DNA of 64,000 nt, taken from assembly GCA_963665715.2 (NCBI GenBank), contig CAXXPR010000001.1, positions 868,550-932,549 on the forward strand, read 5' to 3'. Positions 33,916-64,000 of the stretch are shown here, in pieces (position 1 is the stretch's first letter; each line of letters begins with the position of its first letter). The position numbers and the translations under genes are program-made. The stretch comes from Desulfatiglandales bacterium. Lineage in GTDB: Bacteria > Desulfobacterota > DSM-4660 > Desulfatiglandales > HGW-15. The notes beneath the pieces were generated by a model. It made no database searches, was not told the origin of the DNA, and saw only the letters and a program-made list of their open reading frames with translations.

Positions 33916-33969
33916 AACACTATTACCCTTTTATAATGTTTATCCATGGAATAACTGATCAGCTGCCTG

Positions 33970-36237: not shown

Positions 36238-36338
36238 TTTAAACTCCTTACTTTCCTGTTTGCGTTTGTTACAAAAGCTTAGACTGTTTTATTTACTTAA
36301 CCGGCTGTCTGCCGGATTTTTCCCTCTATAGAATTGTT

Positions 36339-38423: not shown

Positions 38424-38437
38424 TTGTATTCAGCCTT

Positions 38438-38803: not shown

Positions 38804-38805
38804 GA

Positions 38806-39114: not shown

Positions 39115-39133
39115 TCCAGTTCCTTTGATTCCG

Positions 39134-39550: not shown

Positions 39551-39620
39551 TTCCTCTTAAATCCCTGACTGCTGATAATTGAATATTGCTCTGAATCATT
39601 TACCTTTTATTTTTTATTGA

Positions 39621-39635
39621 GCATATTGTGTGCCA
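39621..39635 (-). promoter_or_regulatory. Sigma-54 (-24/-12) promoter of the chemosensory operon
   Basis: The minus strand reads TGGCAC-ACAAT-ATGCT, against the consensus TGGCAC-N5-TTGCW. GG and GC have the exact spacing. It lies about 70 nt upstream of the ATG at 39550 and just downstream of a sigma-54 activator gene. Confidence 0.6.
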
Positions 39636-39740
39636 GAAGGTCGGGAAAATAGGAAATGTAGTTAAAACAGTATGTTGTAGGGTATGGAGTATTGTGTGAT
39701 ATCTGAATTTGCCAGTGTATTCCTAAAAAGAGGAAAATTA

Positions 39741-39760
39741 TTTTCCAGTTTCCTGGAAAA
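39741..39760. promoter_or_regulatory. Perfect 8-4-8 inverted repeat, candidate enhancer (UAS) for the NtrC-type activator
   Basis: TTTTCCAG-TTTC-CTGGAAAA lies about 105-140 nt upstream of the -24/-12 element. This is the usual distance for EBP binding sites. Confidence 0.4.
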
Positions 39761-39874
39761 TGGAAGTCAAAAACAGGTAATATTACGGAAAAATGGGAAA
39801 TAAAACAGCATCACGATAATCTGCTGTTAAGGCATATAATTGGTACTGTTATTCAGCGATGATTTTAAAATGTT

Positions 39875-41658: not shown

Positions 41659-43926
<2,268 letters not shown>

Positions 43927-43990: not shown

Positions 43991-44449
43991 TTATTTCTGC
44001 TCACCGGGAAGCTGTTTTCCCTGGCAGTCAGGGCAGATTCCAAAAAAATCCAGGCGGTGACTTGTTATTTTGAATCCTGTCTCATCAACCAGTTCGGCTG
44101 AAATATCTTTAAGGCTGTCGAGATCAGGATCAATTATTTTTTTGCAAACAGTGCAAATCAGGTGTGGATGGGGATCGGGTTTATTTCCGTCATATCTGCT
44201 GCTTTCCGTCCCAAAGCCAAGTTCAAGAACTTCTCCAAGCTCCTTGAGCATTGAAATGTTTTTATAAACGGTTGCAAGGCTTGTTGTCGGGAATTCCTCT
44301 TTGACCTGTTCATAAATACTTTCAACACTGGGGTGTCCTTCACTTTTAGACAGGACGCCCAGAATAGCAATACGCTGGGGTGTTATTCTGCATCCCTTTT
44401 CCCGCATTTTTTGAATCATTGTTTCAAGACGTATTTTATGATCGGTCAT
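43991..44449 (-). CDS. perR: Fur-family transcriptional regulator, PerR-like
   Basis: 152 aa with a winged helix (CRITPQRIAIL) and HPHLICTVCKKIID plus CPDC zinc/regulatory sites. It is colinear with B. subtilis PerR as recalled. It lies directly upstream of katG on the same strand. Confidence 0.75.
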   Translation of the reverse strand: MTDHKIRLETMIQKMREKGCRITPQRIAILGVLSKSEGHPSVESIYEQVKEEFPTTSLATVYKNISMLKELGEVLELGFGTESSRYDGNKPDPHPHLICTVCKKIIDPDLDSLKDISAELVDETGFKITSHRLDFFGICPDCQGKQLPGEQK

Positions 44450-44504
44450 AATACCGAAAATATACTCCTTTTATTAAAATACGTAAAGAGATAATAATTC
44501 CTAC

Positions 44505-44519
44505 CTGATAATTGTTATC
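44505..44519. promoter_or_regulatory. Fur-family 7-1-7 operator box upstream of perR
   Basis: TGATAATTGTTATCA matches the classical TGATAATnATTATCA at 14 of 15 positions. It is 56 nt upstream of the perR start, in the divergent region shared with the first giant gene. Confidence 0.6.
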
Positions 44520-44777
44520 AATAATAATTGGCTTTAATACTGAAGTCAATAACTTCTATGTCAGAAAATTAATTAAAAGAGTTAATTTAATTTATTAAAT
44601 AATAAAAAAAGGCCGATAGAAACCCTGTAAAGATTTCCTGCCACAGGTGCGTCCTGAAATTGGAATTGGTCAGTTTAAATAAATATAAATCGATTAAAGC
44701 TAATTAACAATAATCGGTTAAGCTGACAGGGTTAAGTTGATACTGTTACTATTGATTTTGAATTATCTGGAGGATGT

Positions 44778-47700
44778 ATGGCGAAAAAAAGAAAAAGCAC
44801 GTCTGATAAAAAAAACAGCACATTAAAAAGAACAAATAAGCTTAGATTAGCTCTGGAACCCAGAATCCTGTATGATGCTTCAGGCCTTGCTGCAGGGCTT
44901 GATATAATATCAGATGGAACGGATATCGGAGATCATGCACTGGATAATGCAGATCAGGCAGATACTGTTGAATCCTCCATTTCTATTGACAGTATAAGCG
45001 AATTTATTCCTCCTGCCGTCCAGAATGTGGATGAAATAGTTTTTGTGGATCCCGGTGTAAGAGATTATTCTGAACTCATAAAAAATATTGATTCCGATGC
45101 AACTGTAATAGTGCTGGATCCGGATAAAGACGGTATAAGCCAGATAACAGATATATTAAGCGGATATGAAAATATATCATCCGTTCACATCCTTTCCCAT
45201 GGTAATGAAGCCGGCATTAACCTTGGTTCTGTAGAATTTAACAGCGATGTTATTGATTTTTACAGCAGTTCCCTTAAGGAATGGAAAAACTCTCTTACCG
45301 AAGATGCTGATATCCTGATATACGGCTGTGATGTCGCAAAGGGCGAAGAAGGAAGCGCTTTTATATCAAAAATAGCTGATCTTACCGGTGCCGATATAGC
45401 CGCTTCCACTGATACAACGGGAATAGAAAGGCTTGGAGGGGACTGGGATCTGGAATATCAGACCGGTGATATCGAGGCTGACACACCCTTTGATCCTTAC
45501 GATATTGAAGCATATGATGATGTGCTTGCAGGTCTGGAATATGCCGATTTAAACAACTGGACAGCAGAAGGTGATTCCAGTGCTGACTGGGAAATTGAAG
45601 AAGGGGGAAGAACAGTCGTACAGCACTATAACGGAAGCGCAATGTTTTTTCTTTCGGATGATGCTGCCGCAGTTGATATAGCCATACAGGGAACCCTTCT
45701 CCAGAGTGACACTGATTTTACCACCAATTATTCCGGCGACGGGGACATTATGGGATACGTCTTCGGATATCAGGATTCAAGCAATTACTATGTTTTTGAA
45801 TGGTCCGGTCCGGATTCAGATAATGATATGTATCTCTATAAAGTGACGAACGGAAGTAAAACCATTCTGGATGAATATCATGATCTTGAATGGACCAAAG
45901 ATGTCACCTATGATGTCCGGATACTTTATATGTCCAATACTATTAAAGTTTCGGTAGATGGGGTTAATTACCTTGAAGCATCAGGAACTTTTGCAGCAGG
46001 AAAATTCGGATTTTATAATTATTCCCAGGGCGCTGTACAGTATGGAAATGTCAGGACCGCACCGGGTTCACTGGTCGAAGTCGTTCCTGAAGTAAGTAAT
46101 GATACCTATGGAGTAGATGAAAACACCACGATTAATATCGATCGTTTCAGCGGGCTATTGAGTAATGACTATGATCCGAATCTTGATGTTTTTACTCTTA
46201 CAGTAAACGGAACACTCCTTAACACAGATGATGCATCAACAACATTCGATACAGCCCACGGCCAGGCCACAGTCTATGGTGACGGTCATTTTTCATATAC
46301 TCCGGATAATGATTATACAGGATCGGACACCTTTATATACTATCTTACTGATGATGACGGCAATTCCTATGATGCCACGGTAACTCTTAATATAATGGAG
46401 CCCAATGTGGCTCCAACCGATATAACCATAGACTGTAATACTGTAGAAAGCGGAGTCTCAGACGGAACAGTAATAGGGGCTCTTTCCACGACAGATGGAA
46501 ATACAGATGATGCCCATGATTATATGCTCATAGATAATTCCGGGGGACGTTTCGGGATCAGCGGAAACAATATTACCGTTGCAGACGGATCGCTTATATC
46601 GGAAGGCTCCTATAATATTACGGTCCGTACAACAGACCTCAGGGGTCTTTCATATGATGAAGTAATTACAATAGAGGTGGCTGACGGTGCTCCGACCATA
46701 ACAACCACCGACAGCAGTTCGGTGTGGATAGAAGACGGAGCCGCAGTAATAATTGCACCTGATCTGACCATAACTGATGCGGGCGGCGAAAACATTGAAA
46801 GTGCGAAGGTCACAATCAATAATAAAATAAATGGTGATATACTGTCATTTATCGATCAGAACGGCATTACTGGTGATTATGACAGCTCAACAGGCGTGCT
46901 CACTCTTACGGGTTCTGCATCGATTTCCAGTTATCAGACTGCATTAAGGAGTATTACCTTTAAAAGCTCTGTAGATGAAGTTGATACAACTTCAAGAGAC
47001 ATATCCTTTACAATCGGAAGCGCAATATCCAGTTCCGATACCGGTCACTATTATGAATACATAGACGGCACCTACACATGGAGTGAAGCAAAGGCTGCAG
47101 CAGAGGCAAGGACTCTTTACGGTCTTCAGGGATATCTTGCAACAATAACCTCTCTGGAAGAAAATACATATATACAGGAGAAACTTCAGGCTGATGCATG
47201 GATCGGTGCGTCAGATCAGGATACCGAGGGTGTATGGAAGTGGGTCACAGGACCTGAAGCCGGCACGATTTTTTACATGGATCCGGATAACTTTGCTGAA
47301 AATTCCGGAACTGTTACCTGGGACTACTGGAACTCGGGTGAGCCCAATGATTCTGACGGAAATGAACATTATGCCGAAATATATTCTTCAGGATCAAACC
47401 CCGGTATGTGGAATGATCTTCCTGACTCCTGGGAATTGGGTTATGTAGTGGAATACGGCGGAACTGCGGGTGATCCGGTTCTTCAATTAACCGCAACTAA
47501 AACCGTAAATATTCTATCCTCAAATGATGCCCCTGTACTCAGCGGACTAACATCAAAAACTGTAGATGAAAATGCTGCAGCATCGGTTATTGATGCGGAC
47601 ATTACTTTTTCCGATGTGGATTCCTCTGATCTGGACGGCGGAACAGTAACTGTATCCGGCCTTGATGCAGAAGATATTGTATCAATTGCATCCGGGGTCA

Positions 47701-50700
47701 GCCATTCAGCCGGAGCTGTTCAGCGATCAGGTAATGAGGTACAGATCTCTGACGGTTCATCATGGACAACTATAGGAACAATAGGCACGGATGCAGATGA
47801 GACAGGCGCCGGAGAAACACTTGTTATTACACTCAACAGCAATGCGGATCCGGCAAATGTTGATGCCCTGCTTCAGTCACTTACCTTTTATAACAATGAT
47901 GACACTCCTGCAACAGCCCGTACCCTGAGTATAACTGTAACGGACGGCGACGGCGGCACAACCGGCGCGCAGAATGTTTCCATTTCCATCACACCTGCCA
48001 ATGATGCCCCTTCAGTGGAAACACCGGGCACCATAACCATAACGGATACAGACTCGGCAAATATTTACGGGGATATAACCGGTACAGTAAATGCCTCTGA
48101 CGCAGAAGGCTCTTCCCTGATATACGGTCTGGATGCCGGAGTTGTATCAGGAGGTTTCAGTATACTGGCAGGAACCTACGGTACACTTACAATAGATACG
48201 GCAACCGGTGATTATGTTTACACCCCGGACAATGATGCTGTAAACGGTCTTGATTCGGGTATAACAGAAACCTTTACTGCAACTGTAAGTGACGGCAGTG
48301 TTTCATCAAATACAACCATTACGGTAGATATCAATGCTGTGCCCGAAAGTGTGCAGGGATATGTTGAACAGGACTCTGCCATAACACCTTTAATCAATGC
48401 AACCATAACCACCGAAGGTGATGTATCCTATTCCGGCGGTTACATGGATTTTGAGGTAAACGATTCCGAAAGCAGTGAAACAATAGGCCTTATAAGGTCC
48501 GATACAGCTTCAATAGTAAACGGTGCGGTAACAATAGTAGGAAACGCAGTGTACCTGGGAGACGGAACTACAGCAAAGGTTATAGGAAGTGTAGACGGAA
48601 CCCTGAATGGCGAAAACGGCCAGAAGCTGCGTATAAATTTCAGTGTTGATTTCGAAAACGGAGATTTTGAAGTCGGCGCTAACGGTGATTTAACGGTAGT
48701 TGGCTGGACCATAGTAAATGACAGGGTAATCTTCGGGCAGGATCAGATAGCAGGGCAGGATACTCCAATAGATGCAACTTATCCTGCTAATAATCTTGCC
48801 AAAACGGTAAATGACAACGGTGAGCTTGAATTTCCTGACGGCATAAAAGATATAGGCAACCTTGATAGCGAGAGTTATTCAACAACAGTAATATCGGGAG
48901 CAGAAGCCAACGGTGGAACCGGAAATTCCATAAAGATGAACAGTAACCTTAATTCTGCTGACGGATATGAAGTCATCAGGGGACCTTATATTTACAGTAA
49001 CGGTACGGTTGCTCTTGAAGCCGGAGACTCCGTTTCCTTTTACTGGAAAGCAGAAGGCGGAGGTGACGCCTATGATGTATACGGGTATATAGTAAATGTA
49101 AATACAGGTGAGACCCAGGTCATTCTGGACGAAACGGGAAGCAGCACCTCTGCCACTACAAACTGGGCGCAGGAATCCGTTTCTGTAGCAAATGCAGGGG
49201 AGTACAGGTTTGTTTTTGTTTCCGGTTCCTATGATTATTCTGGCGGCGAAGCTATGGGCGCCCAGCTTTATATAGATGATGTACAGGTAACCCAGGCGAA
49301 TCCTCCGGACGGTGTTTCAGGAGATGCCCTTGAGCAGATAGCAAAACTTGTCACCTATGAAAACAGTTCCGATCTGACTGCAGCCAACGGTACAATAAGC
49401 AAAACAATGACTGTTACAGCCGTTCAGGCCGATAATACATCGGGCAGTTCAGCCCAGGCTATTGAGATAACAGAGGTAAATGATGTACCTTCTGTGGTTA
49501 CACCATCCGTTATTACCATTACAGATACAGATTCAGCCAATATTTTCGGCGATATAACCGGCACAGTAAATGCTTCTGATTTAGATGCAGGCACAGTCCT
49601 TACATACGGGCTGGACAGCGGGACAGTGTCAGAGGGGTACAGTACCCTTACAGGAACATACGGAACTCTTTCAATAAACACTGCTACCGGTGAATATGTG
49701 TATACACCGGATAGTGACGGCATAAACGCTTTGTCATCAGACGCAAATGATCTTTTTACAGTAACGGTCAGTGACGGTACTGCCACTTCAACTACAACCC
49801 TTACGGTAGATATAGACGCCGTGCCTGAAAGTGTTCAGAGTTATGTGGAGCAGGACCCGGCCATAACGCCTCTGAGTAATTCGAGCATAACAGCAGAAAG
49901 CAGCGTGTCCTATTCGGGCGGTTATATGGATTTTGAGGTGAGTGATTCCGAAAGCGGTGAAACAATAGGTCTTATAAGATCCGATACAGCCTCAATAGTA
50001 AACGGCATGGTAAGTATAGTAGGAAACGCCGTGTACCTGGGAGACGGAACCACAGCAAAGGTTATAGGAAGTGTAGACGGAACCCTGAATGGAGAAAACG
50101 GCCAGAAGCTGCGTATAAACTTCAGTGTTGATTTTGAAAACGGAGATTTTGAAGTCGGTTCTAACGGAGATTTAACGGTAGTTGGCTGGACCATAGTAAA
50201 TGACAGGGTAATCTTCGGGCAGGATCAGATAGCAGGACAGGATACTCCAATAGATTCTACATATCCTGCTTATAACGGCACTCTGGAAGACAGCAGCGGC
50301 GGCAGCGGAAGTTATGATACAACGGTTATATCAGGCGCCGAGGCAAACGGTGGTACCGGTAACTCCATAAGAATGCACAGTTCCCTGCATTCAAACAGCG
50401 GATACGCAGTAATGAGAGGGCCATACATATACAGTAACGGTACAGTTGCTCTTGAAGCCGGAGATTCCGTCTCATTTTACTGGAAGGCAGAGGGCGGGAG
50501 TGATGCCTATGATGTTTACGGATATATAGTAAATGTCAACACCGGTGAAGTTCAGGTTATTCTTGATGAAACAGGCGGCAGTACATATGCTACCACAAAC
50601 TGGGCACAGGAATCCATCAGTGTTGCAAGCGCCGGTGAATACAGGTTTGTGTTTGTGTCGGGTTCATATGATTACACCGGCGGCAGGGCCCTGGGTGCAC

Positions 50701-53700
50701 AGCTTTATATTGATGATGTACAGGTAACTCAGGCAAATCCTCCGGACGGTGTTTCAGGAGATGCACTTGAGCAGATAGCAAAACTTGTTACCTATGAAAA
50801 CAGTTCCGACCTGTCTGCCGCTAACGGCACAATAAGCAAAACAATGACCGTGACGACAGTTCAGGCGGATAATACGTCAGCCTCTTCAACCCAGGCAATT
50901 GAGATAACCGAGGTAAATGATGTTCCGGTTATTGAGGGTATAAATATTACATATACTGATTCAGGGGCAGCGGATAATTTTGCGTCATCAACAGGAACGC
51001 TTAATGCTTCCGATGTGGACAGCGGAACAGTGCTTACCTATGATATATCAGGCGGAACTGATAATGGTGACGGTACGGTCAGCATAATCGGAAGCTACGG
51101 TACCCTGACACTTAATCAGACCACAGGGGCTTATGAGTATACACCGGATGATTCAGCCATTAACCTTTTGAACACAGACGCATCCGACACATTTACCCTG
51201 AGTGTAAGTGACGGTGAAGCTGTTGTGACAGAAACATTCACGGTAAATGCAGCCGGTATAAATGAAACTCCGGTTATAACCACAGGCAGTGCCTCAAACA
51301 CAATCCAGGAAGATACTTCCCTTGTATTCGGTATAAACGGTGATAACAGTATAAGCCTTGATGATCTGGATGCAGCTCCGGACGAAGAGCTTGTCATATC
51401 ATTGAATGTTGGAAACGGAACAGTAATCCTGGGCAGTACAACCGGGATAACTGTTACCGGCGGAGCTGACAGTTCAGGCAGCATAGAGATAAAAGGCACT
51501 CTTACCAATCTTAATGCAGCCCTTGAGGGACTGACCTACAGACCGGGAACTAATTACAACGGCAGTGATATTCTTACCATAACTGTTGATGACAGATTCA
51601 ATACAGGAAACGGCAGTGCGGAAACAGTTATAAAAACAGTAGACATTACCGTAGACGCGGTAAATGATATTCCTGTTCTTGACACTCCTGATACTGTAAA
51701 TATTACAGATACATCATCTGCAGATATCTTTGGAGATATTACCGGAACTGCGTCTGCCTCTGATGTTGATGCCGGTACTACACTTGTTTACGGTCTGGAC
51801 GGCGGAGTTATATCCGGCGGGTATTCTTCTGTAACAGGGGCCTACGGAACCATTACAATTAATACGGCAACAGGTGAGTATGTATTTTCACCTGATAATG
51901 AAGCTGTAAACAATCTTGATGCCGGATCCTCTGAGACATTCGCAGTTACTGTAACTGACGGTGATGCCTCGGTAAGTAAAAATATTACCATTAATATACA
52001 GGCAATGGCGGAAAGTGCCTCTGAATACACGGAGCAGGGCGATGCAGTAACACCGCTCAGCAATGTGACAATCAATACCGAAAGCGGTACCAGCTACGCA
52101 GGCGGTTATGTAGACTTCGAGGTAAGCGGATCGGAAAGCTCCGAAACCCTGGGACTTGTAAGATCGGATACAGCATCTGTTGAAGCGGGTGTAGTGACTA
52201 TAGTTGGTAATACCGTGTATCTTGGAGGTGGAACAAACGCCGAAGTAATAGGGTCGGTTGACAGCCTCTACAACGGGGAAAACGGCCAGAAGCTTCGCAT
52301 CAAATTTACCACTGAGTTTGAAAACGGCAATTTTGAACAGGGATCTGCCGGGGATATAACAGTAACCGGCTGGACCATGGTAAATGAGCGTGTAGTATTT
52401 GGACAGGACCAGATAGCAGGGCAGGATACACCCGCAGATTCGACCTATCCGGTACAGAATCTTAACAAAACCGTTAATGATTCAGGCCAGCTTGAGTTTC
52501 CTGACGGTATACAGGATGCAGGAAATGTAGATTATGCAGCATACACATCATCTGTGGTATCGGGAAGCGTTGCAAACGGCGGAACCGGTAATGCAATAGA
52601 GATGAGAAGCTCGCTCAATTCTGCAGACGGTTATGAAGTAATAAGAGGACCATATATATACAGTAACGGTACAGTAGCCCTTGAAGCAGGGGATCAGGTG
52701 TCTTTTTACTGGAAAGCTGAAGGCGGAAGCGATGCCTATGACGTATATGGTTATATAATAGACGTAAACACCGGTGCTATCCAGACAATACTTGATGATA
52801 CAGCGCCAAATGCCAGAACCAATACACCATGGACTCAGGAGTCAGTTACTGTCTCATCTTCCGGCGAATACAGGTTTGTATTTGTGTCAGGATCATTTGA
52901 TGCCACAGGCGGCGAAGCCATGGGTGCACAGCTTTATATAGATGATGTTGAAGTAACACAGGCCAATCCTCCTGACAGTGTGACAGGTAATGCCCTTCAG
53001 CAGATAGCCCGTCTTGTGACCTATGAAAACAGTTCTGATCTGACTGCTGCAAACGGTACAATAAATAAAGCAATAACAGTAACGGCTGTACAGGCTGATA
53101 ATACGGCGGACAGCGCAGTGCAGTCCCTGGAGATAACGGAAGTAAACGATGCACCGGTACTCGATGCTCCGGGTACTGTCTATTATACTGATACTGACGG
53201 TTCGGATTCCTTTGCTTCTTCAACAGGTGTTCTTAGCGCGTCAGATGCTGACAGTGGAACAGTCATTACATACGGAATAACAGACGGTACTGATAACGGT
53301 GACGGAACAGAAAGTATAACAGGGTCATACGGTACTCTGACATTAAACACTTCCACAGGCGCATGGGAGTTTACTCCGGATGATGCGGCTATAAATGCTC
53401 TTACCAGTAATGTAACAGAGACATTTACCTTAAGCGCAGGTGACGGAGAGACTTCAGACAGTCAGACTCTTACAATAGATATATCCTCTGTAAATGATGC
53501 ACCGCTCCTTGGCGGTAATGCTTCAACCGTAACCTTTATTGAAAACGGTTCAGCTGTACAGATAGACCCGACCATAAGCATAACCGACTTTGAAGGAACA
53601 AGTTATGATACAGGTCATGTGACCTTTTCAACGGTTGTAAACGGAGAGTCGAGCGACAGCTTTGTAATAAAGAATGTCGGCGGGATTACGGTTTCCGGAA

Positions 53701-57587: not shown

Positions 57588-57635
57588 AAAATTACAGAAA
57601 ATATAAATAGCTGTAATATATTAAAGCATATAAAG

Positions 57636-57674
57636 ATCCCCTGTTTTAGGTTTGAAAACACTAATTCAGGGGAT
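57636..57674 (+). terminator. Weak candidate terminator hairpin after giant gene 1
   Basis: ATCCCCTG ... CAGGGGAT is an 8-bp stem with a long loop carrying its own TGTTTT/AAAACA pairing. It lies about 50 nt after the stop and has no clear T-tract. Confidence 0.3.
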
Positions 57675-57961
57675 ATTAATATCAAGTAATTTAAAATATC
57701 TTGTGTCAAAATACCGGCCTTAACAACTCAGCATTTTTTTTAAAATAGACTATTTAGAAAATTTTACTATTTCCTAAAATTTACAGTATGTTCCGATTTA
57801 TAGGAAAAAACCTTCATATTAATTTGTGCTAATAATTTAAAAACAATTAAATTTGTCAGTAAAATTGCCGATGTAGAGCTGTAGGCCGTTTTTTCGGCAG
57901 AGGTGTGTCTGGGGCGTTTAAGGCGAATCATTAGCTTCAATGTTTAAAGTAAATAATTAAT

Positions 57962-57977
57962 TGGCTTAATAATTGCA
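57962..57977 (+). promoter_or_regulatory. Candidate sigma-54 -24/-12 element upstream of giant gene 2
   Basis: TGGCTT-AATAA-TTGCA has the exact GG/GC spacing of TGGCAC-N5-TTGCW. It is 73 nt before the ATG at 58050. The aligned position upstream of gene 1 does not keep the motif, so confidence is low. Confidence 0.3.
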
Positions 57978-58049
57978 GGATTAAGTTAAGTTATTTTTAT
58001 ATCGTTTAAATAATTTAAAGAATTAGTTTTAAAGTTATCAGGAGGATGT

Positions 58050-61000
58050 ATGGGAAAAAATAGAAAGAAAAAGTCTGATAAAAAAAACAGTAAGTTAACC
58101 CGAACTAACAAACTGCAGTTAGCTCTGGAACCAAGAATTTTATATGATGCTTCGGGTCTTGCTGCCGGGCTGGATATATTATCAGACGGAGAGGATGTCG
58201 GTGATCATGCACTTGACAGTACCGACTCAACAGATACTGCTGAATCCTCTATTTCTATTGACAGTATAAGCGGATTTATTCCTCCTGCTGTTCAGGATGT
58301 TGATGAAATTATATTTGTTGATACAAACGTAAGAGATTACAATGCCTTAATCGAAAACATATCTACAGATGCAAGGATAATTGTCCTTGATCCGGACCAG
58401 AATGGAATAGAGCAGATTACGGGCATTCTTTCCGGGTATCAGGATCTTGATGCTGTTCATATCATTTCACACGGAACAGAAGGTCAGATTGTTCTGAGTT
58501 CAGCAGAACTGAATATTGATAATATAGATTCATACAGTCAGCAGTTGTCTCAATGGTCAAAGAGTCTGTCTGCAGATGCAGATATACTTGTATACGGATG
58601 TGATGTTGCAGGAAATGAGCAGGGGCGTGACCTCCTTTCCTCAATTTCGGATCTTACCGGGGCTGATGTTGCAGCGTCGGATGATGCTACAGGTTCGGAT
58701 GATCTTTCTGCCGACTGGGACCTTGAAGTCAGGACAGGTGATATCGAAGCCATTCCGCTGGCAGTAGAAGGTTATAATGATATTCTGGGTGTGCCGTCAA
58801 TTTCAAATCTTGGCAATGCAAGTTATACGGAAAATGATTCTCCTGTGGTTATTGACAGTGATGTGACCTTTTCCAACGGAACCAGTTATTCGGGCGGGTA
58901 TGTAGAGTTTGAACTGACAAACGGTCTGGCCGAAGATAATTTAGGCCTTGTCTATGACAGCAGTATTTCTACAGTAAACGGAGACCTCTCCATTGTTGAC
59001 GGTACAGTTTACCTCGGTAACGGGAGCGATGCAGCGGTTGTTGGAAGTGTTGATGCCACCTATAACGGCCTTAATGGACAGAAGCTTCGAATAAATTTTT
59101 CAAACGAGTTTGAAAATGGAGATTTCAGTGAAGGTTCATCCGGAAGTACCATAATTACAGGCTGGACAGCTGTAAACGCCCAGGTGAAATTTGGGACAGA
59201 TACCATAGCCGGTCTCCCGACTCCTGTTGATACTGTGTGGCCTACAAACTGGTCCGGCACCTATACTGACCAGAATACACCTACTAATCCCGGTACAATG
59301 ACGACAGTATTAAGCGATGTACAGAATGACGGCGCCGGATATTCCGTTCAGATGAAAAGCGCGTCTATGACTACCTATGCAGGGTATGATATTGTACGCG
59401 GCCCATACATATACAGTAACGGCACTGTTTCTCTTTCTGCCAACGACACTGTTTCATTTGAATGGCAGGCCCAGGGCGGAGGAGACGCCTATGATGTATA
59501 CGGATATATTGTTGATGTTAATACCGGGCATATAGAGACTATCCTTAATGAAACAGGGACAAGCACAAGTGCATCAACAACATGGGCAACAGAAACCATA
59601 ACAGTATCACAGGCCGGTCAGTACAAATTTGTGTTTGTATCCGGTACCTATGATTATTCAGGTGGAAAAGCAGCCGGTGCTCAGCTCTATATAGATGACG
59701 TTACTGTTACGCAGGCAGTTGTAGCTGCAACAGTGAATGATTCACATCTCTCAGAAATAGCCAGTCGTGTTACCTATGAAAACACATCGGAAAGTCCCAG
59801 CACAACTACCCGCACTTATCAGATAACAGCAATAAGCGGAACCGGCGATACAGGTACTGCTTCATCCAGTATTTCGGTTATATCGGTTGAAGACGCACCG
59901 GTTATTACAACTACAGGCGGTAATTCAAGCTGGACAGAAGATGGATCCGCTATTGTAATTGATTCAGGCCTAACAATTACCGATGTTGACGGCGGAAATA
60001 TAGACAGCGCAAAGGTTGCAATAAATAATGTAATTGAAGGAGATATTTTATCGTTTGTAAATCAGAATGGCATTACCGGTGACTATGACAGCTCAACAGG
60101 AATTCTCACTCTCACAGGCTCAGCAACTGTAGCCAATTACCAGACAGCATTAAGGAGCGTGACATTTTCGAGTTCTGTTGACGAAGTCAATACAACCGCA
60201 AGAGAAATATCATTTACAATTGGAAGTGCTATTACAAACAGTGAAACCGGTCATTACTATGAATATATTGACGGAGACTATACCTGGACTCAGGCTAGGG
60301 ATGCGGCTGCTGCCAGAACCCTGTACGGCCTTCAGGGATACCTTGCAACAGTTACTTCACTTGCGGAAAATTCCTACATTGAAGATAAGCTGCAGGCGGA
60401 TGCATGGATAGGAGCTGCGGATACAGGAGTGGAAGGCACCTGGAAATGGGTTACAGGTCCGGAAAACGGTACAACTTTTTATACTGATCCTGATAACGGC
60501 GGAAGCGGAACCGTAACCTGGTCCAACTGGAACGATGGTGAGCCAAATGACTCCGGCAGCGCTGAAGATTATGCCGAGATTTATTCAACCAATAACGGTT
60601 TATGGAATGACCTGGGCGCCTCAAGCCAGCTAGGTTACGTGGTGGAATACGGCGGAATGGTAGGCGACCCTGTTCTTCAGCTCACTGCAAGTAAAACGGT
60701 AAATATATTGCCTAATAATGATAACCCGGTTCTCACAGGGCTGACTGCAAAGACGGTTGAGGAAAATGCGGATGCATCAATAATAGATAGTGATGTAACC
60801 CTGTCGGATATTGATTCTTCGGATTTCAGCGGCGGAACAATAACGGTGTCAGGCCTTGATTCAGAAGATACCGTATCAATATCTGCAGATACTTCTCACG
60901 GTGTCAACGCTATAAGACGTTCTGGTAACGATGTCCAGATATCAGACGGAACTGTCTGGACTACCATAGGAACAATAGGCACAGGGGCAGGCCAGACAGG

Positions 61001-64000
61001 CGCAGGTGAAACCTTTATTATTACCCTTAACGGCAATGCTTCGGTGTCAAATGTTGATGCTCTTCTTCAAAATCTGACCTTTTATAATAATGATGATTCA
61101 CCAACCTTAAGCCGTACATTAAATATAACTGTCACAGATGGTGACGGAGGAAGCACAGGCGCACAGAGTGTCACAATATCAATCACTCCCCAGGATGACG
61201 CTCCGGTAATCGCAACAACCGGCGGTGATGCGGAGTGGACAGAGGACGGTTCAGCCATTGTTGTGGATTCAGGTATTACAGTATCTGATGCTGACGGTGG
61301 CAATATCGATAATGCCAGTGTAGTGATAAATAACAAAATAGACGGAGATATATTATCCTTTACTTCCCAGAACGGAATTACCGGGTCATATGATGCAGAC
61401 ACGGGTGTATTGTCCCTAACTGGTACGGCATCAGCTGCAGATTATCAGACAGTATTAAGAAGTGTTACCTATAGAAGTACAATTGATGAAACCAATACAG
61501 CGGCCCGCGATATTTCCTTTACCATAGGAAGTGCAATATCGAGTTCAGATACGGGACATTATTATGAATACATCAAAATAGGAGAGGGTTCTACCTGGGA
61601 AGAGGCAAGGGATGCAGCTGCAGCAATGAGCCTTTACGGGCTTCAGGGATACCTTGCTACCATAACATCCCTGGAAGAAAATGAATATATAAAGGAGAAA
61701 CTTCAGGCAGAGGCGTGGATCGGCGCGACAGACCAGGAGTCCGAAGGTGTGTGGAAATGGGTAACAGGTCCTGAAGCCGGTACAATATTTTACAGAGATC
61801 CGGATATTTTCGGTGTGGGTTCAGGAACTGTAACCTGGGATTACTGGAACTCAGGCGAACCTAATAATAGTGATGGAAATGAACATTATGCTGAAATATT
61901 TTCGTCAGGAGAAAGCCAGGGCAGATGGAATGACCTCCCTAATGCCTGGACACTGGGGTTTGTAGTTGAATACGGCGGAATGGCAGGAGACCCTGTTTTA
62001 CAGCTTTCTGCAAATAAAACTGTAAATATTCTGCCGGTTAATGATGCACCTACACTTTCCGGGCTTACTGACAATACTATTAATGAAAACACCCAGGCTT
62101 TTATTGACAGCAGCCTGAATTTTGCTGATGAGGACACAGGAGACCTCAACGGCGGAACAATAACTGTATCAGGTCTTGATGCCAGTGATGTGATTTCTCT
62201 TTTTACAGGAGTAAATCATTCGGTAAATGCAATTCAGAGAGAAAATAATAATATCCAGATTTCTGACGGATCATCCTGGACAACAATAGCTACTGTAGGA
62301 ACCAATGCAGACCAGACAGGTGTTGGAGAAACACTGGTAATTACCCTGAATGCAAATTCAACAGCAGCCAATGTTGATGCCTTGTTACAGAATCTTACAT
62401 TTTATAACAGCAGCGATAATCCGGTTGCCTCAAGAACTTTAAGCATAACGGTGACAGACGGAGACGGCGGTACAACAGGTGTACAGAATGTAACTATTTC
62501 CGTAACTCCGGTTAATGACGCCCCTGTTTTAAATGATCTTAATCAGATTAATATTACAGACACAGCATCAGGCGATATATACGGAGATATCAGCGGAACA
62601 GCTGTTGCTTCGGATGTTGATAACGGTACAACACTTACATTCGGTACAGACGGAGGTGCAGTATCCGGGGGATACAGTACTCTTGCAGGTACATACGGAA
62701 CCCTGACGATAAATACCTCTACAGGAGAATACATATTTGCTCCTGATAACGATGCAATAAATGCTCTCAGCTCGGATACGGTTGAAACCATCGGTGTTAC
62801 GGTAACTGACGGCGAAGCAACCACAATTAAAAATCTAACCATTGATATTCAGGCAATTGCGGAAAGCTCTTCAGGTTATACCGAGCAGGGAGATGCAGTA
62901 ACACCCCTTGAAAATGTAACAATAACCACGGAAAGCGGTACCAGCTATGCCGGCGGATACATTGATTTTGAGGTGAGCGGATCAGAAAACAGTGAAACCC
63001 TCGGACTTGTAAGGGCTGAAACTGCTTCAATTGTAAACGGTGTTGTTACAATAGTGGGTAACGCCGTATACCTTGGAGACGGAACCAGTGCCAAGGTAAT
63101 AGGTTCTGTTGACAGCTATTACAACGGAGAAAACGGCCAGAAACTCCGTATAAAATTTACCACGGAGTTTGAAAACGGAAACTTTGAGTTGGGATCAAAC
63201 GGTGATTTAACAGTTACCGGCTGGACCATGGTAAATGAGCGCGTAACATTCGGTCAGGACCAGATAGCAGGGCAGGATACCCCGATAGATACCACCTACC
63301 CGGTAAATAACCTTAATAAGCACTATAACGACTCTCACCAGCTTGAGTTCCCTGACGGTATCCTTGATATAGGAAATGTTGATTACGCCACCTATACCTC
63401 ATCAGTAGTGTCAGGCAGTGTTGCCAACGGCGGAACAGGTAATGCCATAAAGATGAGAAGTTCCCTTAACTCCGCTGACGGATATGAAGTAATAAGAGGA
63501 CCCTATATCTACAGCAATGGAACAGTAGCCCTTGAGGCAGGAGATGAAGTATCCTTTTACTGGAAGGCTGAAGGTGGAAGCGATGCCTATGATGTTTACG
63601 GTTATGTAATAGATGTAAACACCGGAGCCACCCAGACCATACTGGATGATACCGGAGCCAATGCCAGGGCAACCACAGCCTGGAGCCAGGAATCCATAAC
63701 CATAAACACCGCTGGCGAGTACAGGTTTGTATTTGTGTCAGGATCATTTGATGCAACCGGCGGTGAAGCAATGGGGGCCCAGCTTTATATAGATGACGTT
63801 GAAGTAACCCAGGCCAATCCTCCTGACAGTGTAACAGGCAGCGCACTGCAGCAGATAGCAAGGCTTGTTACATATGAAAACAGCTCTGACCTTACAGCCG
63901 CAAACGGTACAATAAACAAGGCCATTACAGTAACAGCGGTTCAGGCAGACGAAACAGCAGACAGTACAAGCCAGGGGCTTGAAATAACGGAAGTAAATGA
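58050..64000 (+). CDS. Second giant adhesin-like paralogue, 5' part (at least 1983 codons, continues beyond the window)
   Basis: It is not in the ORF track because it has no stop inside the window. The ATG at 58050 follows CAGGAGGATGT, the same context as gene 1. My translation gives MGKNRKKKSDKKNSKLTRTNKLQLALEPRILYDASGLAAGLDILSDG..., then DUF4347, a jelly-roll supermodule, two CTLD cassettes and another supermodule. The track shows no plus-strand ORF in this frame, consistent with one open frame. Confidence 0.85.
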   Translation, partial: MGKNRKKKSDKKNSKLTRTNKLQLALEPRILYDASGLAAGLDILSDGEDVGDHALDSTDSTDTAESSISIDSISGFIPPAVQDVDEIIFVDTNVRDYNALIENISTDARIIVLDPDQNGIEQITGILSGYQDLDAVHIISHGTEGQIVLSSAELNIDNIDSYSQQLSQWSKSLSADADILVYGCDVAGNEQGRDLLSSISDLTGADVAASDDATGSDDLSADWDLEVRTGDIEAIPLAVEGYNDILGVPSISNLGNASYTENDSPVVIDSDVTFSNGTSYSGGYVEFELTNGLAEDNLGLVYDSSISTVNGDLSIVDGTVYLGNGSDAAVVGSVDATYNGLNGQKLRINFSNEFENGDFSEGSSGSTIITGWTAVNAQVKFGTDTIAGLPTPVDTVWPTNWSGTYTDQNTPTNPGTMTTVLSDVQNDGAGYSVQMKSASMTTYAGYDIVRGPYIYSNGTVSLSANDTVSFEWQAQGGGDAYDVYGYIVDVNTGHIETILNETGTSTSASTTWATETITVSQAGQYKFVFVSGTYDYSGGKAAGAQLYIDDVTVTQAVVAATVNDSHLSEIASRVTYENTSESPSTTTRTYQITAISGTGDTGTASSSISVISVEDAPVITTTGGNSSWTEDGSAIVIDSGLTITDVDGGNIDSAKVAINNVIEGDILSFVNQNGITGDYDSSTGILTLTGSATVANYQTALRSVTFSSSVDEVNTTAREISFTIGSAITNSETGHYYEYIDGDYTWTQARDAAAARTLYGLQGYLATVTSLAENSYIEDKLQADAWIGAADTGVEGTWKWVTGPENGTTFYTDPDNGGSGTVTWSNWNDGEPNDSGSAEDYAEIYSTNNGLWNDLGASSQLGYVVEYGGMVGDPVLQLTASKTVNILPNNDNPVLTGLTAKTVEENADASIIDSDVTLSDIDSSDFSGGTITVSGLDSEDTVSISADTSHGVNAIRRSGNDVQISDGTVWTTIGTIGTGAGQTGAGETFIITLNGNASVSNVDALLQNLTFYNNDDSPTLSRTLNITVTDGDGGSTGAQSVTISITPQDDAPVIATTGGDAEWTEDGSAIVVDSGITVSDADGGNIDNASVVINNKIDGDILSFTSQNGITGSYDADTGVLSLTGTASAADYQTVLRSVTYRSTIDETNTAARDISFTIGSAISSSDTGHYYEYIKIGEGSTWEEARDAAAAMSLYGLQGYLATITSLEENEYIKEKLQAEAWIGATDQESEGVWKWVTGPEAGTIFYRDPDIFGVGSGTVTWDYWNSGEPNNSDGNEHYAEIFSSGESQGRWNDLPNAWTLGFVVEYGGMAGDPVLQLSANKTVNILPVNDAPTLSGLTDNTINENTQAFIDSSLNFADEDTGDLNGGTITVSGLDASDVISLFTGVNHSVNAIQRENNNIQISDGSSWTTIATVGTNADQTGVGETLVITLNANSTAANVDALLQNLTFYNSSDNPVASRTLSITVTDGDGGTTGVQNVTISVTPVNDAPVLNDLNQINITDTASGDIYGDISGTAVASDVDNGTTLTFGTDGGAVSGGYSTLAGTYGTLTINTSTGEYIFAPDNDAINALSSDTVETIGVTVTDGEATTIKNLTIDIQAIAESSSGYTEQGDAVTPLENVTITTESGTSYAGGYIDFEVSGSENSETLGLVRAETASIVNGVVTIVGNAVYLGDGTSAKVIGSVDSYYNGENGQKLRIKFTTEFENGNFELGSNGDLTVTGWTMVNERVTFGQDQIAGQDTPIDTTYPVNNLNKHYNDSHQLEFPDGILDIGNVDYATYTSSVVSGSVANGGTGNAIKMRSSLNSADGYEVIRGPYIYSNGTVALEAGDEVSFYWKAEGGSDAYDVYGYVIDVNTGATQTILDDTGANARATTAWSQESITINTAGEYRFVFVSGSFDATGGEAMGAQLYIDDVEVTQANPPDSVTGSALQQIARLVTYENSSDLTAANGTINKAITVTAVQADETADSTSQGLEITEVN
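58302..58751 (+). other. DUF4347-type domain of giant protein 2
   Basis: EIIFVD...IIVLDPDQNGIEQI...VHIISHGTEGQIVLS...DILVYGCDVAGNEQGRDLLSSISDLTGADVAASDDATG...DWDLEV. Confidence 0.65.
59106..59715 (+). other. CBM4_9-like jelly-roll module (gene 2, first)
   Basis: FENGDFSEGSSGSTIITGWTAVN ... RGPYIYSNGTVSLSANDTVSFEWQAQGGGDAYDVYGYIVDVNTG ... GAQLYIDDVTVTQ. Confidence 0.45.
60249..60655 (+). other. C-type lectin-like domain a (gene 2)
   Basis: GHYYEYIDGDYTWTQARDAAAARTLYGLQGYLATVTSLAENSYIEDKLQADAWIGAADTGVEGTWKWVTGPE...WNDGEPNDSGSAEDYAEIYSTNNGLWNDL...YVVEYGG. Confidence 0.75.
61554..61978 (+). other. C-type lectin-like domain b (gene 2)
   Basis: GHYYEYIKIGEGSTWEEARDAAAAMSLYGLQGYLATITSLEENEYIKEKLQAEAWIGATDQESEGVWKWVTGPE...WNSGEPNNSDGNEHYAEIFSSGESQGRWNDL...FVVEYGG. 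Confidence 0.75.
63165..63813 (+). other. CBM4_9-like jelly-roll module (gene 2, second)
   Basis: FENGNFELGSNGDLTVTGWTMVN ... GAQLYIDDVEVTQ. It is very close to gene 1 module 3 at about 52317-52961. Confidence 0.45.

Follow-up and report, generated by a model that had tools for sequence, protein, structure and literature searches.

The adhesins LapA, SiiE, MpIBP and FrhA are giant, acidic and cysteine-poor proteins that present lectin or other ligand-binding modules on an Ig-like stalk stiffened by Ca2+, and they carry no Sec signal. Other giant secreted proteins, TcdB and MARTX, contain clan CD autoprocessing domains. Among described tandem pairs, Cag_663 and Cag_665 of Chlorobium chlorochromatii are LEPRxLL proteins of 20,647 and 36,806 aa whose genes are separated by a TolC-like gene and which belong to a Ca2+-dependent cell-cell consortium (bioRxiv 10.64898/2026.03.19.712371). 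They are built from hemagglutinin-like beta-helix repeats, no C-type lectin domain (CTLD), jelly-roll or He_PIG modules were reported in them, and a Ca2+-dependent cell-cell adhesion context has been proposed for them (bioRxiv 10.64898/2026.03.19.712371). Finally, the Pseudomonas aeruginosa T6SS effector Tce1 (PA0256) has been proposed to be a cysteine protease in which His186 and Cys240 match the TcdB dyad, and it gave no phenotype in yeast (PMC13323088).

Here we describe two giant genes, g1 and g2, located in a 64,000-nucleotide stretch of DNA from a Desulfatiglandales bacterium (hereafter, the window). Like Cag_663 and Cag_665, they form a tandem pair of giant size, bear an N-terminal LEPRxLL tag, and lack a recognised export signal. 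A TolC-like gene adjoins the giant genes in relatives of g1 and g2, though not in this window. Unlike the Cag proteins, which are compared here by description only, g1 and g2 carry a DUF4347 domain directly after the tag. They share with LapA, SiiE, MpIBP and FrhA their size, acidity, scarcity of cysteine, Ig-like stalk and lectin modules, and a conduit of TolC plus adaptor is implicated for them as well. They differ from RTX adhesins in lacking RTX repeats, in having no adjacent genes for an ABC exporter, adaptor or TolC in the window, and in having relatives that pair with a fusion of an M50 protease and an adaptor. Furthermore, their ligand modules lie in the N-terminal half, and LEPR plus DUF4347 replaces the retention module of the LapA type.

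Two giant genes in tandem

An earlier note on this DNA had described two giant paralogous ORFs separated by 462 nt and sharing a ribosome-binding context, and all of these statements held. The g1 frame is intact at 4269 aa, and g2 stays open for at least 1983 codons. The first 1983 residues of a public library protein of 6118 aa (P0155) are identical to the g2 ORF, and the predicted stop lies about 12.4 kb past the window end. The frames run uninterrupted over 12.8 and 18.4 kb with their modules in register. In the measured spacer (57588-58049), no terminator-like site was found and sigma-70-like sites were not in excess; the spacer has short patches in common with the region upstream of g1, the likeness being limited to these patches. 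The 13-mer GGAGGATGTATGG is present in exactly two copies in the window, at 44769 and 58041, which are the two gene starts. The chance expectation is 0.05 matches, and two copies were reached in none of 100 shuffles. A KatG gene neighbours the pair.

Module-against-protein BLAST returned the order of modules as first described. In g1, DUF4347 is followed by the TSP_C-like domain, two Ig/cadherin-like domains, one CTLD cassette, three jelly-roll supermodules, further repeats and the acidic tail. Within the window, g2 runs from DUF4347 through a supermodule and two CTLD cassettes to another supermodule (Table 1). More than 90% of each protein consists of beta-sandwich or lectin modules. The two proteins contain 15-16% D+E (16.1% in g1), 2.8% K+R, and four (g1) or two (g2) cysteines, an acidic composition typical of Ca2+-binding secreted adhesins.

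Table 1. Features of g1, g2 and the spacer between them, in window coordinates
Feature	Position	Strand	Basis or remark
g1 ribosome-binding/start context GGAGGATGTATGG	44769..44781	+	13-mer, exact match
g1, intact 4269-aa CDS	44778..57587	+	ORF list; identical to library protein P0156
g1 basic N-terminus with LEPR-XLL motif, aa 1-43	44778..44906	+	NCBIfam NF012209
g1 DUF4347, aa 87-250	45036..45527	+	Pfam 197 bits; predicted caspase-like fold
g1 His141	45198-45200	+	DUF4347 conserved pair
g1 Cys184	45327-45329	+	DUF4347 conserved pair
g1 thrombospondin-C/ConA-like lectin-fold domain, aa 251-435	45528..46082	+	Pfam TSP_C
g1 bacterial cadherin-like/Big_9 domain, aa 436-540	46083..46397	+	Pfam
g1 second repeat-type domain, aa 545-636	46410..46685	+	no family match
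g1 CTLD cassette: E module aa 637-747, CTLD aa 748-895, G module aa 896-1078	46686..48011	+	Lectin_C
g1 C-type lectin domain, aa 748-895	47019-47462	+	Lectin_C 38.8 bits
g1 supermodule 1, aa 1079-1571	48012..49490	+	BLAST, AF2, Foldseek
g1 jelly roll 1, aa 1290-1506	48645-49295	+	splits G-type domain
g1 supermodule 2, aa 1572-2050; jelly roll aa 1784-1985	49491..50927	+	BLAST
g1 supermodule 3, aa 2301-2793; jelly roll aa 2513-2728	51678..53156	+	BLAST
g1 further cadherin-like/Big_9 and unassigned repeats, aa 2794-3715	53157..55922	+	BLAST, Pfam
g1 acidic Ser/Gly/Asp-rich low-complexity tail, aa 3716-4079	55923..57014	+	composition
g1 162-nt tandem repeat in acidic tail	56246-56688	+	repeat search
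g1 He_PIG (dystroglycan-type cadherin-like), aa ~4089-4179	57042..57314	+	Pfam 37 bits
g1 C-terminal end	57420..57584	+	hydrophobic stretch, basic patch, terminal helix
spacer g1-g2, AT-rich, 462 nt	57588..58049	.	no ORF
g2, first 1983 of 6118 codons	58050..64000	+	frame open to window end
g2 LEPR-XLL N-terminus (aa 1-43) and DUF4347 (aa 87-246)	58050..58787	+	HMM
g2 His141	58470-58472	+	DUF4347 conserved pair
g2 Cys184	58599-58601	+	DUF4347 conserved pair
g2 supermodule, aa 259-617; jelly roll aa 353-555	58824..59900	+	BLAST
g2 two CTLD cassettes	59895..62525	+	Lectin_C, BLAST
g2 CTLD 1, aa 726-869	60225-60656	+	Lectin_C
g2 CTLD 2, aa 1161-1310	61530-61979	+	Lectin_C
g2 supermodule, aa 1500-1983; jelly roll aa 1706-1921	62547..63998	+	BLAST; first ~1180-aa megarepeat starts here

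The LEPR-XLL tag and the DUF4347 domain

The basic N-terminus ending in RTNKL.LALEPRILYDASGLAAGLDI is present in both proteins, as had been noted. What the first reading missed is that, judged by sequence, this is a tag already known from giant proteins as LEPR-XLL. Both proteins pass the NCBIfam model NF012209 (LEPR-8K) narrowly, with 17.8 bits for g1 and 17.6 bits for g2 at a cut-off of 17, and the motif of about 24 aa is conserved and aligns across relatives. At 4269 and 6118 aa with internal repeats, the two proteins are also very large and repetitive, as LEPR-XLL proteins are.

A DUF4347-like domain had likewise been proposed for both proteins, and PF14252 detects it with 197.1 bits in g1, where the match spans the whole model (positions 1-164 of 164), and with 184.3 bits in g2 (cut-off 24.6). 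Structural modelling gives this domain a caspase-like fold, and one His and one Cys in it form a conserved pair; the first reading missed both. The core of the AF2 model has a pLDDT above 90, and its best Foldseek match is Tce1 (9qpe_G, E 3e-5), followed by legumain (E 3.5e-4), caspase-3, CED-3 and Csx29. The match probabilities are 0.97-1.0, the TM-scores are modest (0.27-0.56), and flavodoxin-like folds are also among the matches. His141 and Cys184 are each kept in at least 90% of 121 sequences, with the His replaced in a few relatives. In the model, strand 133-139 runs into S-H141-G and strand 173-182 into G-C184, the clan CD arrangement of a His and then a Cys that each end a hydrophobic beta-strand.

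The relationship to Tce1 is a distant one. The two share a Pfam family, and the His and Cys motifs of DUF4347 align with THG and YGC of Tce1. This alignment needed a profile search, in which the similarity was weak (profile E 0.0056), and single-sequence phmmer gave no match between DUF4347 and the PDB. Tce1 is a stand-alone Hcp3 cargo of 310 aa, whereas DUF4347 heads a repeat protein of 4-6 kaa with no T6SS nearby, and peptidase activity is putative in both. In lying inside a giant protein, DUF4347 of g1 and g2 resembles the autoprocessing domains of TcdB and MARTX.

Lectin domains that lack cysteine

The ConA/TSP-C-like domain proposed for g1 is supported by TSP_C (PF05735), which scores 28.7 bits in the whole protein and 40 bits on the segment alone (cut-off 25.6), the match being good at model positions 3-71 of 198 only. 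By phmmer, the segment matches COMP and thrombospondin-1 and -2 (E 2.5e-4 to 8e-4). The CTLD calls were also sound. Lectin_C (PF00059, cut-off 22.6) is found once in g1 (32 bits in the whole protein, 38.8 for the domain alone) and twice in g2 (66.9 bits over two stretches), and the phmmer matches of the g1 domain include mannose receptor 2, mincle, DC-SIGNR and mannose-binding protein (MBP). The motifs WIG808, EPN855 and WND878 of g1 recur in both g2 domains, and EPN-E-WND of g1 matches the primary Ca2+/sugar site of mincle and DC-SIGNR at every residue. All three CTLDs keep the residues EPN, Glu and WND of a putative sugar-binding Ca2+ site 2, although EPN by itself is no proof that a domain binds sugar.

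The label "metazoan-type" that the earlier note gave to these modules is overstated. Like mincle, DC-SIGN/DC-SIGNR and mannose-binding protein, the CTLDs have the Lectin_C match, WIG and EPN-E-WND. Unlike animal mannose-type C-type lectins, they lack the defining disulfides, the two at the core that are expected of PF00059, because none of the three contains a cysteine; E-D-C of DC-SIGNR, for example, aligns with E-H-Y in g1. They are also flanked by E and G modules that are bacterial and have no Pfam family, and the cadherin-like repeats come from bacterial families as well.

Repeats, jelly rolls and C-terminus

The repeat chain of both proteins is bacterial cadherin/Ig-like with ND(A/V/I)P junctions, and NCBIfam tandem-95 scores 136 bits for the whole of g1. 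Of two cadherin-like domains claimed for g1, the first was recovered (Big_9 54.5 bits, Cadherin_4 36.5, Cadherin_5 35.8), whereas the second gave no significant Pfam match and no PDB sequence match. The dystroglycan-type cadherin-like module near the end of g1 was recovered as He_PIG.

In the first supermodule of g1, a tandem-95/Cadherin_4-type repeat precedes a G-type domain with an inserted CBM-like jelly roll. Supermodule 2 of g1 is 80-94% identical to supermodule 1 in amino acids and 78% in DNA, and supermodule 3 starts a unit of about 1180 aa that is present three times in g2. Jelly rolls number three in g1 and five in full-length g2. The earlier CBM-like assignment holds for the fold and fails for the sequence family. 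The AF2 model (pLDDT 86) is a beta-jelly roll that Foldseek matches to the hyaluronan-binding module 4d0q of pneumococcal hyaluronate lyase and to CBM4, 22, 61, 16 and 29 (probability 1.0, E 3e-6 to 3e-4), with modest TM-scores of which the highest is 0.61 on the target, for CBM4-2. Pfam returned no family at E values up to 1, and the module belongs to no curated CBM family. Unlike CBMs, the jelly roll is inserted in another domain, and it is common to flagellin, FlgK, FlgL and RTX proteins rather than to glycoside hydrolases. That the module also occurs in RTX proteins, and sits in flagellins, FlgK and FlgL within the middle part exposed at the surface, argues for an extracellular role.

At its C-terminus, g1 has a Gly/Ala-rich hydrophobic stretch (aa 4215-4230, IGGSVLGMALAGSLAV), a basic patch, and a terminal helix (aa 4247-4269, FSDQIIKAASRFENECRNFINRI) that aligns with a family-wide C-terminal motif. 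Full-length g2 ends in the same way, with the hydrophobic stretch and then the basic patch. This conserved helix, which the first reading overlooked, is family-specific. A search with the last 190 aa, made among proteins of similar length, gave no relative.

Relatives and the operon around them

From their sequences, g1 and g2 are paralogous new members of a widespread, uncharacterised family of LEPR-XLL/DUF4347 giant proteins. The combination of modules had been called unusual, yet it recurs, in partly similar order, in at least 12 other giant proteins (P0157-P0164, P0191, P0195, P0201, P0207). The family ranges over Proteobacteria, Desulfobacteraceae, Nitrospirota, Planctomycetota and Cyanobacteria, and its culturable members include Halomonas cupida, Neptunomonas japonica and Marinobacter suaedae. 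In a scan of species-representative genomes, the best N-terminal relative was 42-49% identical, and the closest one found is in a Desulfobacteraceae genome. A metagenome scan with the end of g2 gave a single distant relative (35% identity).

The earlier note had left the export route open. Its supporting observations stand: no signal peptide (no hydrophobic core in the first 80 aa, with a best 17-residue Kyte-Doolittle mean of 0.95), no RTX nonapeptide repeats (one chance match in g1, none in g2, and no HemolysinCabind match), and no T1SS or T5SS genes among the other ORFs of the window. The route itself is much less open, given a dedicated operon around relatives. The order there is TolC-like channel, small adaptor, giant gene, adaptor, and M50-protease-adaptor fusion, with no ABC transporter. 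In all 10 relatives with readable context, the giant gene lies in this operon or beside parts of it; the operon is complete at L083, L086, L087/L088, L089, L090 and L091 and partial at L001, L082, L084 and L085. HExxH is kept in 44 of 45 fusions. In a variant, a short SecA paralogue is part of the operon preceding DUF4347 genes (about 45 of 80 other genomes), and this truncated paralogue is added in many gammaproteobacteria. No ABC exporter was found in the window, in the conserved neighbour clusters of 80 loci, or immediately next to the giant genes of the 10 relatives. The 44.7 kb that precede g1 contain no gene of the operon, nor does the spacer to g2, and g1 and g2 stand alone among the family members examined in missing the channel and small adaptor immediately upstream. 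We claim no link between the LEPR motif, as captured by our own regular expression, and operon presence (p = 0.059, not significant). In the literature on DUF4347, LEPR-XLL and the combination of M50, adaptor and SecA, we found no description of this operon.

Possible functions of the giant proteins

We consider it probable that g1 and g2 are Ca2+-dependent, multivalent lectin-type adhesins on a diderm surface, exported by a type-1-like route encoded elsewhere. A multivalent glycan-binding adhesin, as previously suggested, is the most reasonable inferred function. The repeat chain would form a stalk, stiffened by Ca2+, on which the lectin modules are displayed, and these might bind glycans on neighbouring cells, on a sheath or matrix, on particles, or on a partner organism. 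Export would bypass Sec and use a type-1-like envelope conduit, which we infer because the giant genes of all 10 readable relatives lie in or beside the TolC-like/adaptor/M50-adaptor operon. In the genome of g1 and g2, the operon would have to be located beyond the window, possibly behind g2. DUF4347 could be a built-in cysteine peptidase that removes the LEPR leader or releases the adhesin, comparable to the action of LapG on LapA or to the MARTX/TcdB autoprocessing domain.

Going further, we tentatively speculate that an undescribed envelope-spanning system exports and matures g1, g2 and their relatives as its cargo, recognising them by the LEPR-XLL leader, the C-terminal helix, or both. Such a system would comprise a TolC-like channel, two to three periplasmic adaptors and a fusion of an adaptor with an M50 intramembrane zinc protease, joined in many gammaproteobacteria by the truncated SecA paralogue, with no ABC transporter, and the caspase-like DUF4347 would serve as a built-in protease for maturation or release.

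Perhaps the proteins are instead released from the cell and cross-link extracellular polysaccharide as part of a matrix, a sheath or a "glue", although we regard this as rather unlikely. The lectin and repeat modules suit a matrix scaffold equally well, and the peptidase-like DUF4347 could free the protein from the cell. With a Kyte-Doolittle value of 1.44 over 17 aa, the C-terminal hydrophobic stretch is weak, and close relatives by architecture do not have it. However, g1 and g2 both keep this stretch followed by the basic patch, and in gammaproteobacterial and planctomycete members the C-terminal end is a conserved double hydrophobic segment resembling a membrane anchor.

Lower in our ranking, and improbable, is the view of g1 and g2 as classical RTX adhesins of the LapA/SiiE/MpIBP kind, whose type-1 secretion through an ABC transporter, adaptor and TolC starts at the C-terminus and whose N-terminus acts as a retention plug. 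The general build of g1 and g2, with giant size, acidity, few cysteines and an Ig-like stalk with lectin modules, is that of such adhesins, a conserved helix follows an Asp/Gly/Ser-rich region where T1SS signals lie, and TolC-like and adaptor genes flank the relatives. Some LEPR-XLL proteins elsewhere even carry RTX C-termini (PMC10868602), and the library giant protein P0170 has 33 RTX motifs. Against this, g1 and g2 lack RTX nonapeptides, no ABC exporter appeared at any of the places searched, the inner-membrane partner of the relatives is the M50 protease fusion instead, and the lectin modules occupy the half opposite to that in LapA-type adhesins.

It is very improbable that g1 and g2 are toxins or effector-delivery proteins in which DUF4347 acts as a cysteine-protease warhead or autoprocessing domain and the repeats serve only for targeting. 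The structural matches of DUF4347, first Tce1, itself a proposed cysteine-protease effector (PMC13323088), and then caspase-type peptidases, would fit this idea, but the 4269 + 6118 aa searched gave no domain of a toxin, a pore former or an enzymatic effector, no T6SS genes lie in the window, and beta-sandwich or lectin modules fill nearly all of each protein. Least probable of all, and hardly credible, is that assembly artefacts, chimeras or pseudogenes in decay account for the ORFs: repeats abound in the genes, and a run of 268 identical residues shared by two of the ~1180-aa repeats of full-length g2, partly past the window end, could reflect collapse or mis-joining, but both long frames are open with modules in register, the repeats in the window are easy to assemble because their DNA identity is only 65-78% (85% in the short acidic repeat), both genes retain intact family signatures at the N- and the C-terminus, and relatives share the architecture.

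Implications

Giant surface proteins determine how bacteria stick to one another, to particles and to partners. The g1/g2 pair is a fully readable example with three testable handles, namely disulfide-free CTLDs in which the mannose-type Ca2+ site is kept, a CBM-like module shared with flagellins, and a caspase-like N-terminal domain. The comparative result, which places relatives in an operon for a channel, adaptors and an M50 protease without an ABC transporter, outweighs the two genes themselves, and this link opens the question of giant-protein export to direct genetics in culturable relatives. If our tentative proposal is true, the export system of these relatives would be a new route of secretion, one reserved for giant adhesins.

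Tandem giant genes and their neighborhood

The giant gene g1 and its paralogue g2 were described in the earlier note as a 12.8-kb frame encoding 4269 aa and, after a 462-nt gap, a second open frame of at least 1983 codons. Reading of the ORFs bears this out: no interruption occurs in the 4269 codons of g1, the 462-nt spacer holds no ORF, and g2 stays open through all 1983 codons up to the window end. The proposal that both genes share a start context and N-terminus also holds. The 13-mer GGAGGATGTATGG has exactly two copies in 64 kb (0.05 expected by chance), one at each start, the first 250 residues are ~66% identical, and both basic N-termini end in RTNKL.LALEPRILYDASGLAAGLDI. In addition, the upstream regions share a short block (GCCACAGGTGCGTCC for g1, GGCAGAGGTGTGTCT for g2) ~130-150 nt before the start, which could be a duplicated regulatory site. 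Scans of the g1-g2 spacer found no terminator-like site and no excess of sigma-70-like sites.

In the representative protein library, g1 is entry P0156. Because entry P0155 has 6118 aa, of which residues 1-1983 are identical to g2 of the window, g2 must end ~12.4 kb past the window. Each protein is a singleton at 90% identity among ~15 billion proteins, and both entries share one 1,148,208-bp NCBI/ENA contig. Full-length g2 carries three copies (83-88% identical; aa 1500-5041 of P0155, mostly past the window) of a ~1180-aa unit that comprises a supermodule (a repeat unit bearing a CBM-like jelly roll) and several further modules. There is a single copy in g1 (74-78% identical). The first and third g2 copies share 268 consecutive identical residues, a sign of recent gene conversion or of possible assembly collapse. 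Within the window, DNA repeats are only 65-78% identical (85% in a 162-nt acidic repeat), and therefore mis-assembly of this part of the genes is unlikely. The 162-nt repeat in the g1 tail is likely a length-variable spacer.

Upstream of g1 are divergent fur and katG, a che-like cluster followed by a sigma-54 response regulator, and a set of housekeeping genes, among them lysS, lolCD, bamA, skp, lpxD, fabZ, lpxA, lpxI, and lpxB. The region is chromosomal and comes from a diderm. With fur and its spacer (window 43991-44777) directly before g1, and katG next to fur, control of g1 by iron or oxidative stress is conceivable. A sigma-54 activator is also found just upstream of the operon at L086, a locus of a relative. 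No secretion genes precede g1 in the window, and a domain survey of the other ORFs agrees with the earlier statement that the window holds none.

Coordinates of features in the window and at loci of relatives (L numbers)
Feature	Sequence	Coordinates	Strand	Remarks
g1	window	44778-57587	+	
g2	window	from 58050	+	open at window end
Shared upstream block of g1	window	44640-44660		
Shared upstream block of g2	window	57895-57915		
Jelly roll, ~215 aa, CBM-like	window	48645-49295		four further copies; related: P0128, P0131, P0132, P0135-P0140, P0147-P0152
162-nt tandem repeat	window	56246-56688		g1 acidic Ser/Gly/Asp tail; 2.7 copies, 87% matches
fur	window	43991-44449	-	divergent from g1 over 328-nt AT-rich spacer
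katG	window	41659-43875		adjoins fur
che-like cluster	window	33400-41308	-	CheW, double-Cache MCP, CheA, CheY-like receiver, STAS protein, unassigned 138-aa ORF
ORF, 449 aa	window	8618-9967	+	no Pfam family at E up to 1e-4
ORF, 132 aa	window	13682-14080	-	no Pfam family at E up to 1e-4
ORF, 138 aa	window	39134-39550	-	no Pfam family at E up to 1e-4
Operon	L083	7683-21792		
Operon	L086	2608-18343		
Operon	L087	7170-21847		
Operon	L089	7654-22245		
Operon	L090	7293-28997		
Operon	L091	7459-22678		
Gammaproteobacterial variant	L008	4124-9762		also L037, L038, L047, L057, L058, and others among L001-L080

Domains and lectin modules

When g1 was cut into modules and each was searched against both proteins, the module order previously proposed for g1 and g2 was reproduced. 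The assignment of lectin, cadherin, TSP-C, and He_PIG domains is largely right by HMM, profile, and fold; the exception is the second "cadherin-like" domain of g1 (aa 545-636), which matches no family. Pfam and NCBIfam models identify DUF4347 (197 bits in g1, 184 bits in g2), Big_9, Cadherin_4, Cadherin_5, tandem-95 repeats, one Lectin_C domain in g1 and two in g2, and a He_PIG domain near the C-terminus, recognized at 37 bits. The g1 TSP_C-like segment, which phmmer matches to COMP and thrombospondin-1/-2, scores 28.7 bits in whole g1 and 40 bits when scanned alone, and it qualifies as TSP_C with partial coverage of the model.

All three C-type lectin domains (CTLDs) match the mannose receptor, mincle, DC-SIGNR, and mannose-binding protein. 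Each keeps WIG, EPN, the next Glu, and WND, and in alignments to mincle and DC-SIGNR the last three fall exactly on the primary Ca2+/sugar site. None of the three contains a cysteine, and thus the canonical disulfides are absent. They are Lectin_C members by HMM and Ca2+-site residues, not by disulfides. The EPN motif predicts binding of mannose, GlcNAc, glucose, or fucose-type sugars.

No Pfam family was found for the jelly roll. Its AlphaFold model, built with both flanks (pLDDT 86), matches the hyaluronan-binding module of pneumococcal hyaluronate lyase, CBM4-2 (TM 0.61 on target), CBM22, 61, 16, and 29, and MAM domains. The G module that flanks the CTLD in its cassette is unsplit; the upstream flank of the jelly roll resembles its first two thirds, and the downstream flank its last third. 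We infer from the sequence that each supermodule is probably a G-type domain with a jelly roll inserted.

N-terminal and C-terminal regions

The LEPR tag, DUF4347 fold, cysteine content, composition, and shared C-terminus were not seen in the earlier note. Both N-termini match NCBIfam LEPR-8K, the LEPR-XLL tag of giant proteins, by a narrow pass (17.8 and 17.6 bits versus a cut-off of 17). The DUF4347 core is modeled with pLDDT >90, and the structure closest to it is that of Tce1 (PA0256), another DUF4347 protein, solved by cryo-EM, followed by legumain, caspase-3, CED-3, and Csx29. In the model, strand 133-139 leads into His141 and strand 173-182 into Cys184, which is a caspase-type arrangement. 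Each residue is conserved in at least 90% of 121 relatives, and a DUF4347 profile aligns both motifs to Tce1. The domains of g1 and g2 are of the caspase-like fold with a His/Cys pair. Tce1 has been proposed to be a cysteine protease on the same grounds, and no phenotype was found for it (PMC13323088). Only two cysteines occur in the 6118 aa of g2, and four in g1; Cys184 is among them in both.

The two proteins are strongly acidic (D+E 15-16% versus K+R 2.8%) and have ND(A/V/I)P-type junctions between repeats. Strong acidity and such junctions are typical of Ca2+-binding stalks. The C-termini are alike, running from an acidic Ser/Gly/Asp spacer through He_PIG, a Gly/Ala-rich hydrophobic stretch, and a basic patch to a terminal helix that aligns with the family-wide motif [LF]xEQ[LI]...YGxxLxxLL. 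Complete gammaproteobacterial and planctomycete DUF4347 giants (L012, L027, L030, L033, L034, L046, L056, L077) end in a conserved double hydrophobic motif, ..GYVxWxxRxGxLxxSxxSxxPxWRxxDPLPIL.., which looks like a membrane hairpin, whereas g1 and g2 have one weaker hydrophobic stretch.

The wider family

The jelly roll alone recovers 924 representative clusters at E up to 1e-3 (631 of them at E up to 1e-10) and carries the conserved motif W-K-A-x-G-G-x-D-A-Y-D-V-Y-G-Y. Its best matches are further giants in which LEPR and DUF4347 accompany supermodules, CTLD cassettes, and the C-terminal helix described above. Among these, P0201 and P0207 begin in the g1 order of DUF4347, TSP_C-like, two Ig-like domains, and CTLD cassette. 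The architecture is therefore recurrent rather than singular, and its earlier description as an unusual combination was overstated: g1 and g2 belong to a known but uncharacterized family of giants. Outside these giants, the jelly roll (often together with its upstream flank) occurs in RTX proteins and as the variable middle insert of FlgK, FlgL, and flagellins, in the last of which it separates the N- and C-terminal domains. This distribution supports a probable extracellular role.

DUF4347 N-termini related to that of g1 occur in Gammaproteobacteria, Desulfobacteraceae, Nitrospirota, Planctomycetota, and Cyanobacteria, and a search of 185,579 species genomes gave no match better than 42-49% identity. 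The C-terminal 190 aa have no relative among proteins of similar length, and a metagenome scan with the end of g2 gave one distant relative (35% identity).

An export-type operon around relatives

Gene context was readable for ten family members. Six (L083, L086, L087/L088, L089, L090, and L091) have a complete five-gene operon, and the other four (L001, L082, L084, and L085) show those parts covered by their contigs. The order is a TolC-like channel (514-698 aa), a small adaptor (239-285 aa), the giant gene, an adaptor (446-458 aa), and an M50 intramembrane metalloprotease fused to an adaptor (701-715 aa), except that the small adaptor of L001 is downstream of the giant gene. No ABC transporter is present in the operon of these closest architecture relatives.

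A second survey covered 80 genome loci (L001-L080) recovered with the g1 N-terminus. An M50-adaptor fusion adjoins the DUF4347 gene in 45 of them, usually in the order GAF-adaptor, M50-adaptor, SPOR-adaptor upstream of the giant gene (the gammaproteobacterial variant of the table), and HExxH is kept in 44 of these 45 fusions. Culturable species that carry the operon include Halomonas cupida DSM 4740, Neptunomonas japonica DSM 18939, and Marinobacter suaedae. A TolC-like gene occurs in seven loci of this survey, and a 686-aa truncated SecA paralogue, which is below the NCBIfam SecA and SecA2 cut-offs (571 bits versus 814 for SecA), occurs in 16. No ABC transporter cluster was found among the neighbors of the 80 loci. 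At cyanobacterial and planctomycete loci, the cassette is not nearby. The association between LEPR motif and cassette across loci is not significant (p = 0.059).

The window contains no homologue of the operon or cassette proteins, and g1 and g2 are the only examined family members without the upstream half of the operon. In this genome, such a system would have to be encoded outside the window. A literature search returned no description of this operon-giant gene association.

Possible mechanism and topology

It seems reasonable to propose that the repeats form a Ca2+-stiffened stalk, and that the CTLDs, ConA-like domain, and jelly rolls provide multivalent glycan binding. The proteins would exit the cell without Sec, via the channel/adaptor/M50 system found around all relatives examined, and DUF4347 would process the protein.

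There are two candidate topologies. The N-terminus might be exported first with the C-terminus as an anchor; in favor of this are the SecA paralogue, the location of the lectin modules toward the N-terminus, and the hydrophobic segments at the C-terminus, which in gamma-type relatives form a conserved double segment. Alternatively, the C-terminus might leave first in a type-1-like manner, with LEPR and DUF4347 serving as a retention plug. This order is favored by the RTX C-termini of LEPR-XLL proteins elsewhere (PMC10868602) and by the fact that the conserved C-terminal helix comes after an Asp/Gly/Ser-rich region.

With no RTX repeats, and no ABC exporter in the window, g1 and g2 do not qualify as RTX adhesins, and although they would act similarly to giant type-1-secreted adhesins, they are not classed among them. 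The closest described case is that of Cag_663 and Cag_665 of Chlorobium chlorochromatii, tandem LEPRxLL giants with a TolC-like gene between them that have been linked to Ca2+-dependent consortium adhesion (bioRxiv 10.64898/2026.03.19.712371). The most interesting outcome is comparative: this family has a conserved export-type operon, apparently not described before, and it is conspicuously missing next to g1 and g2.
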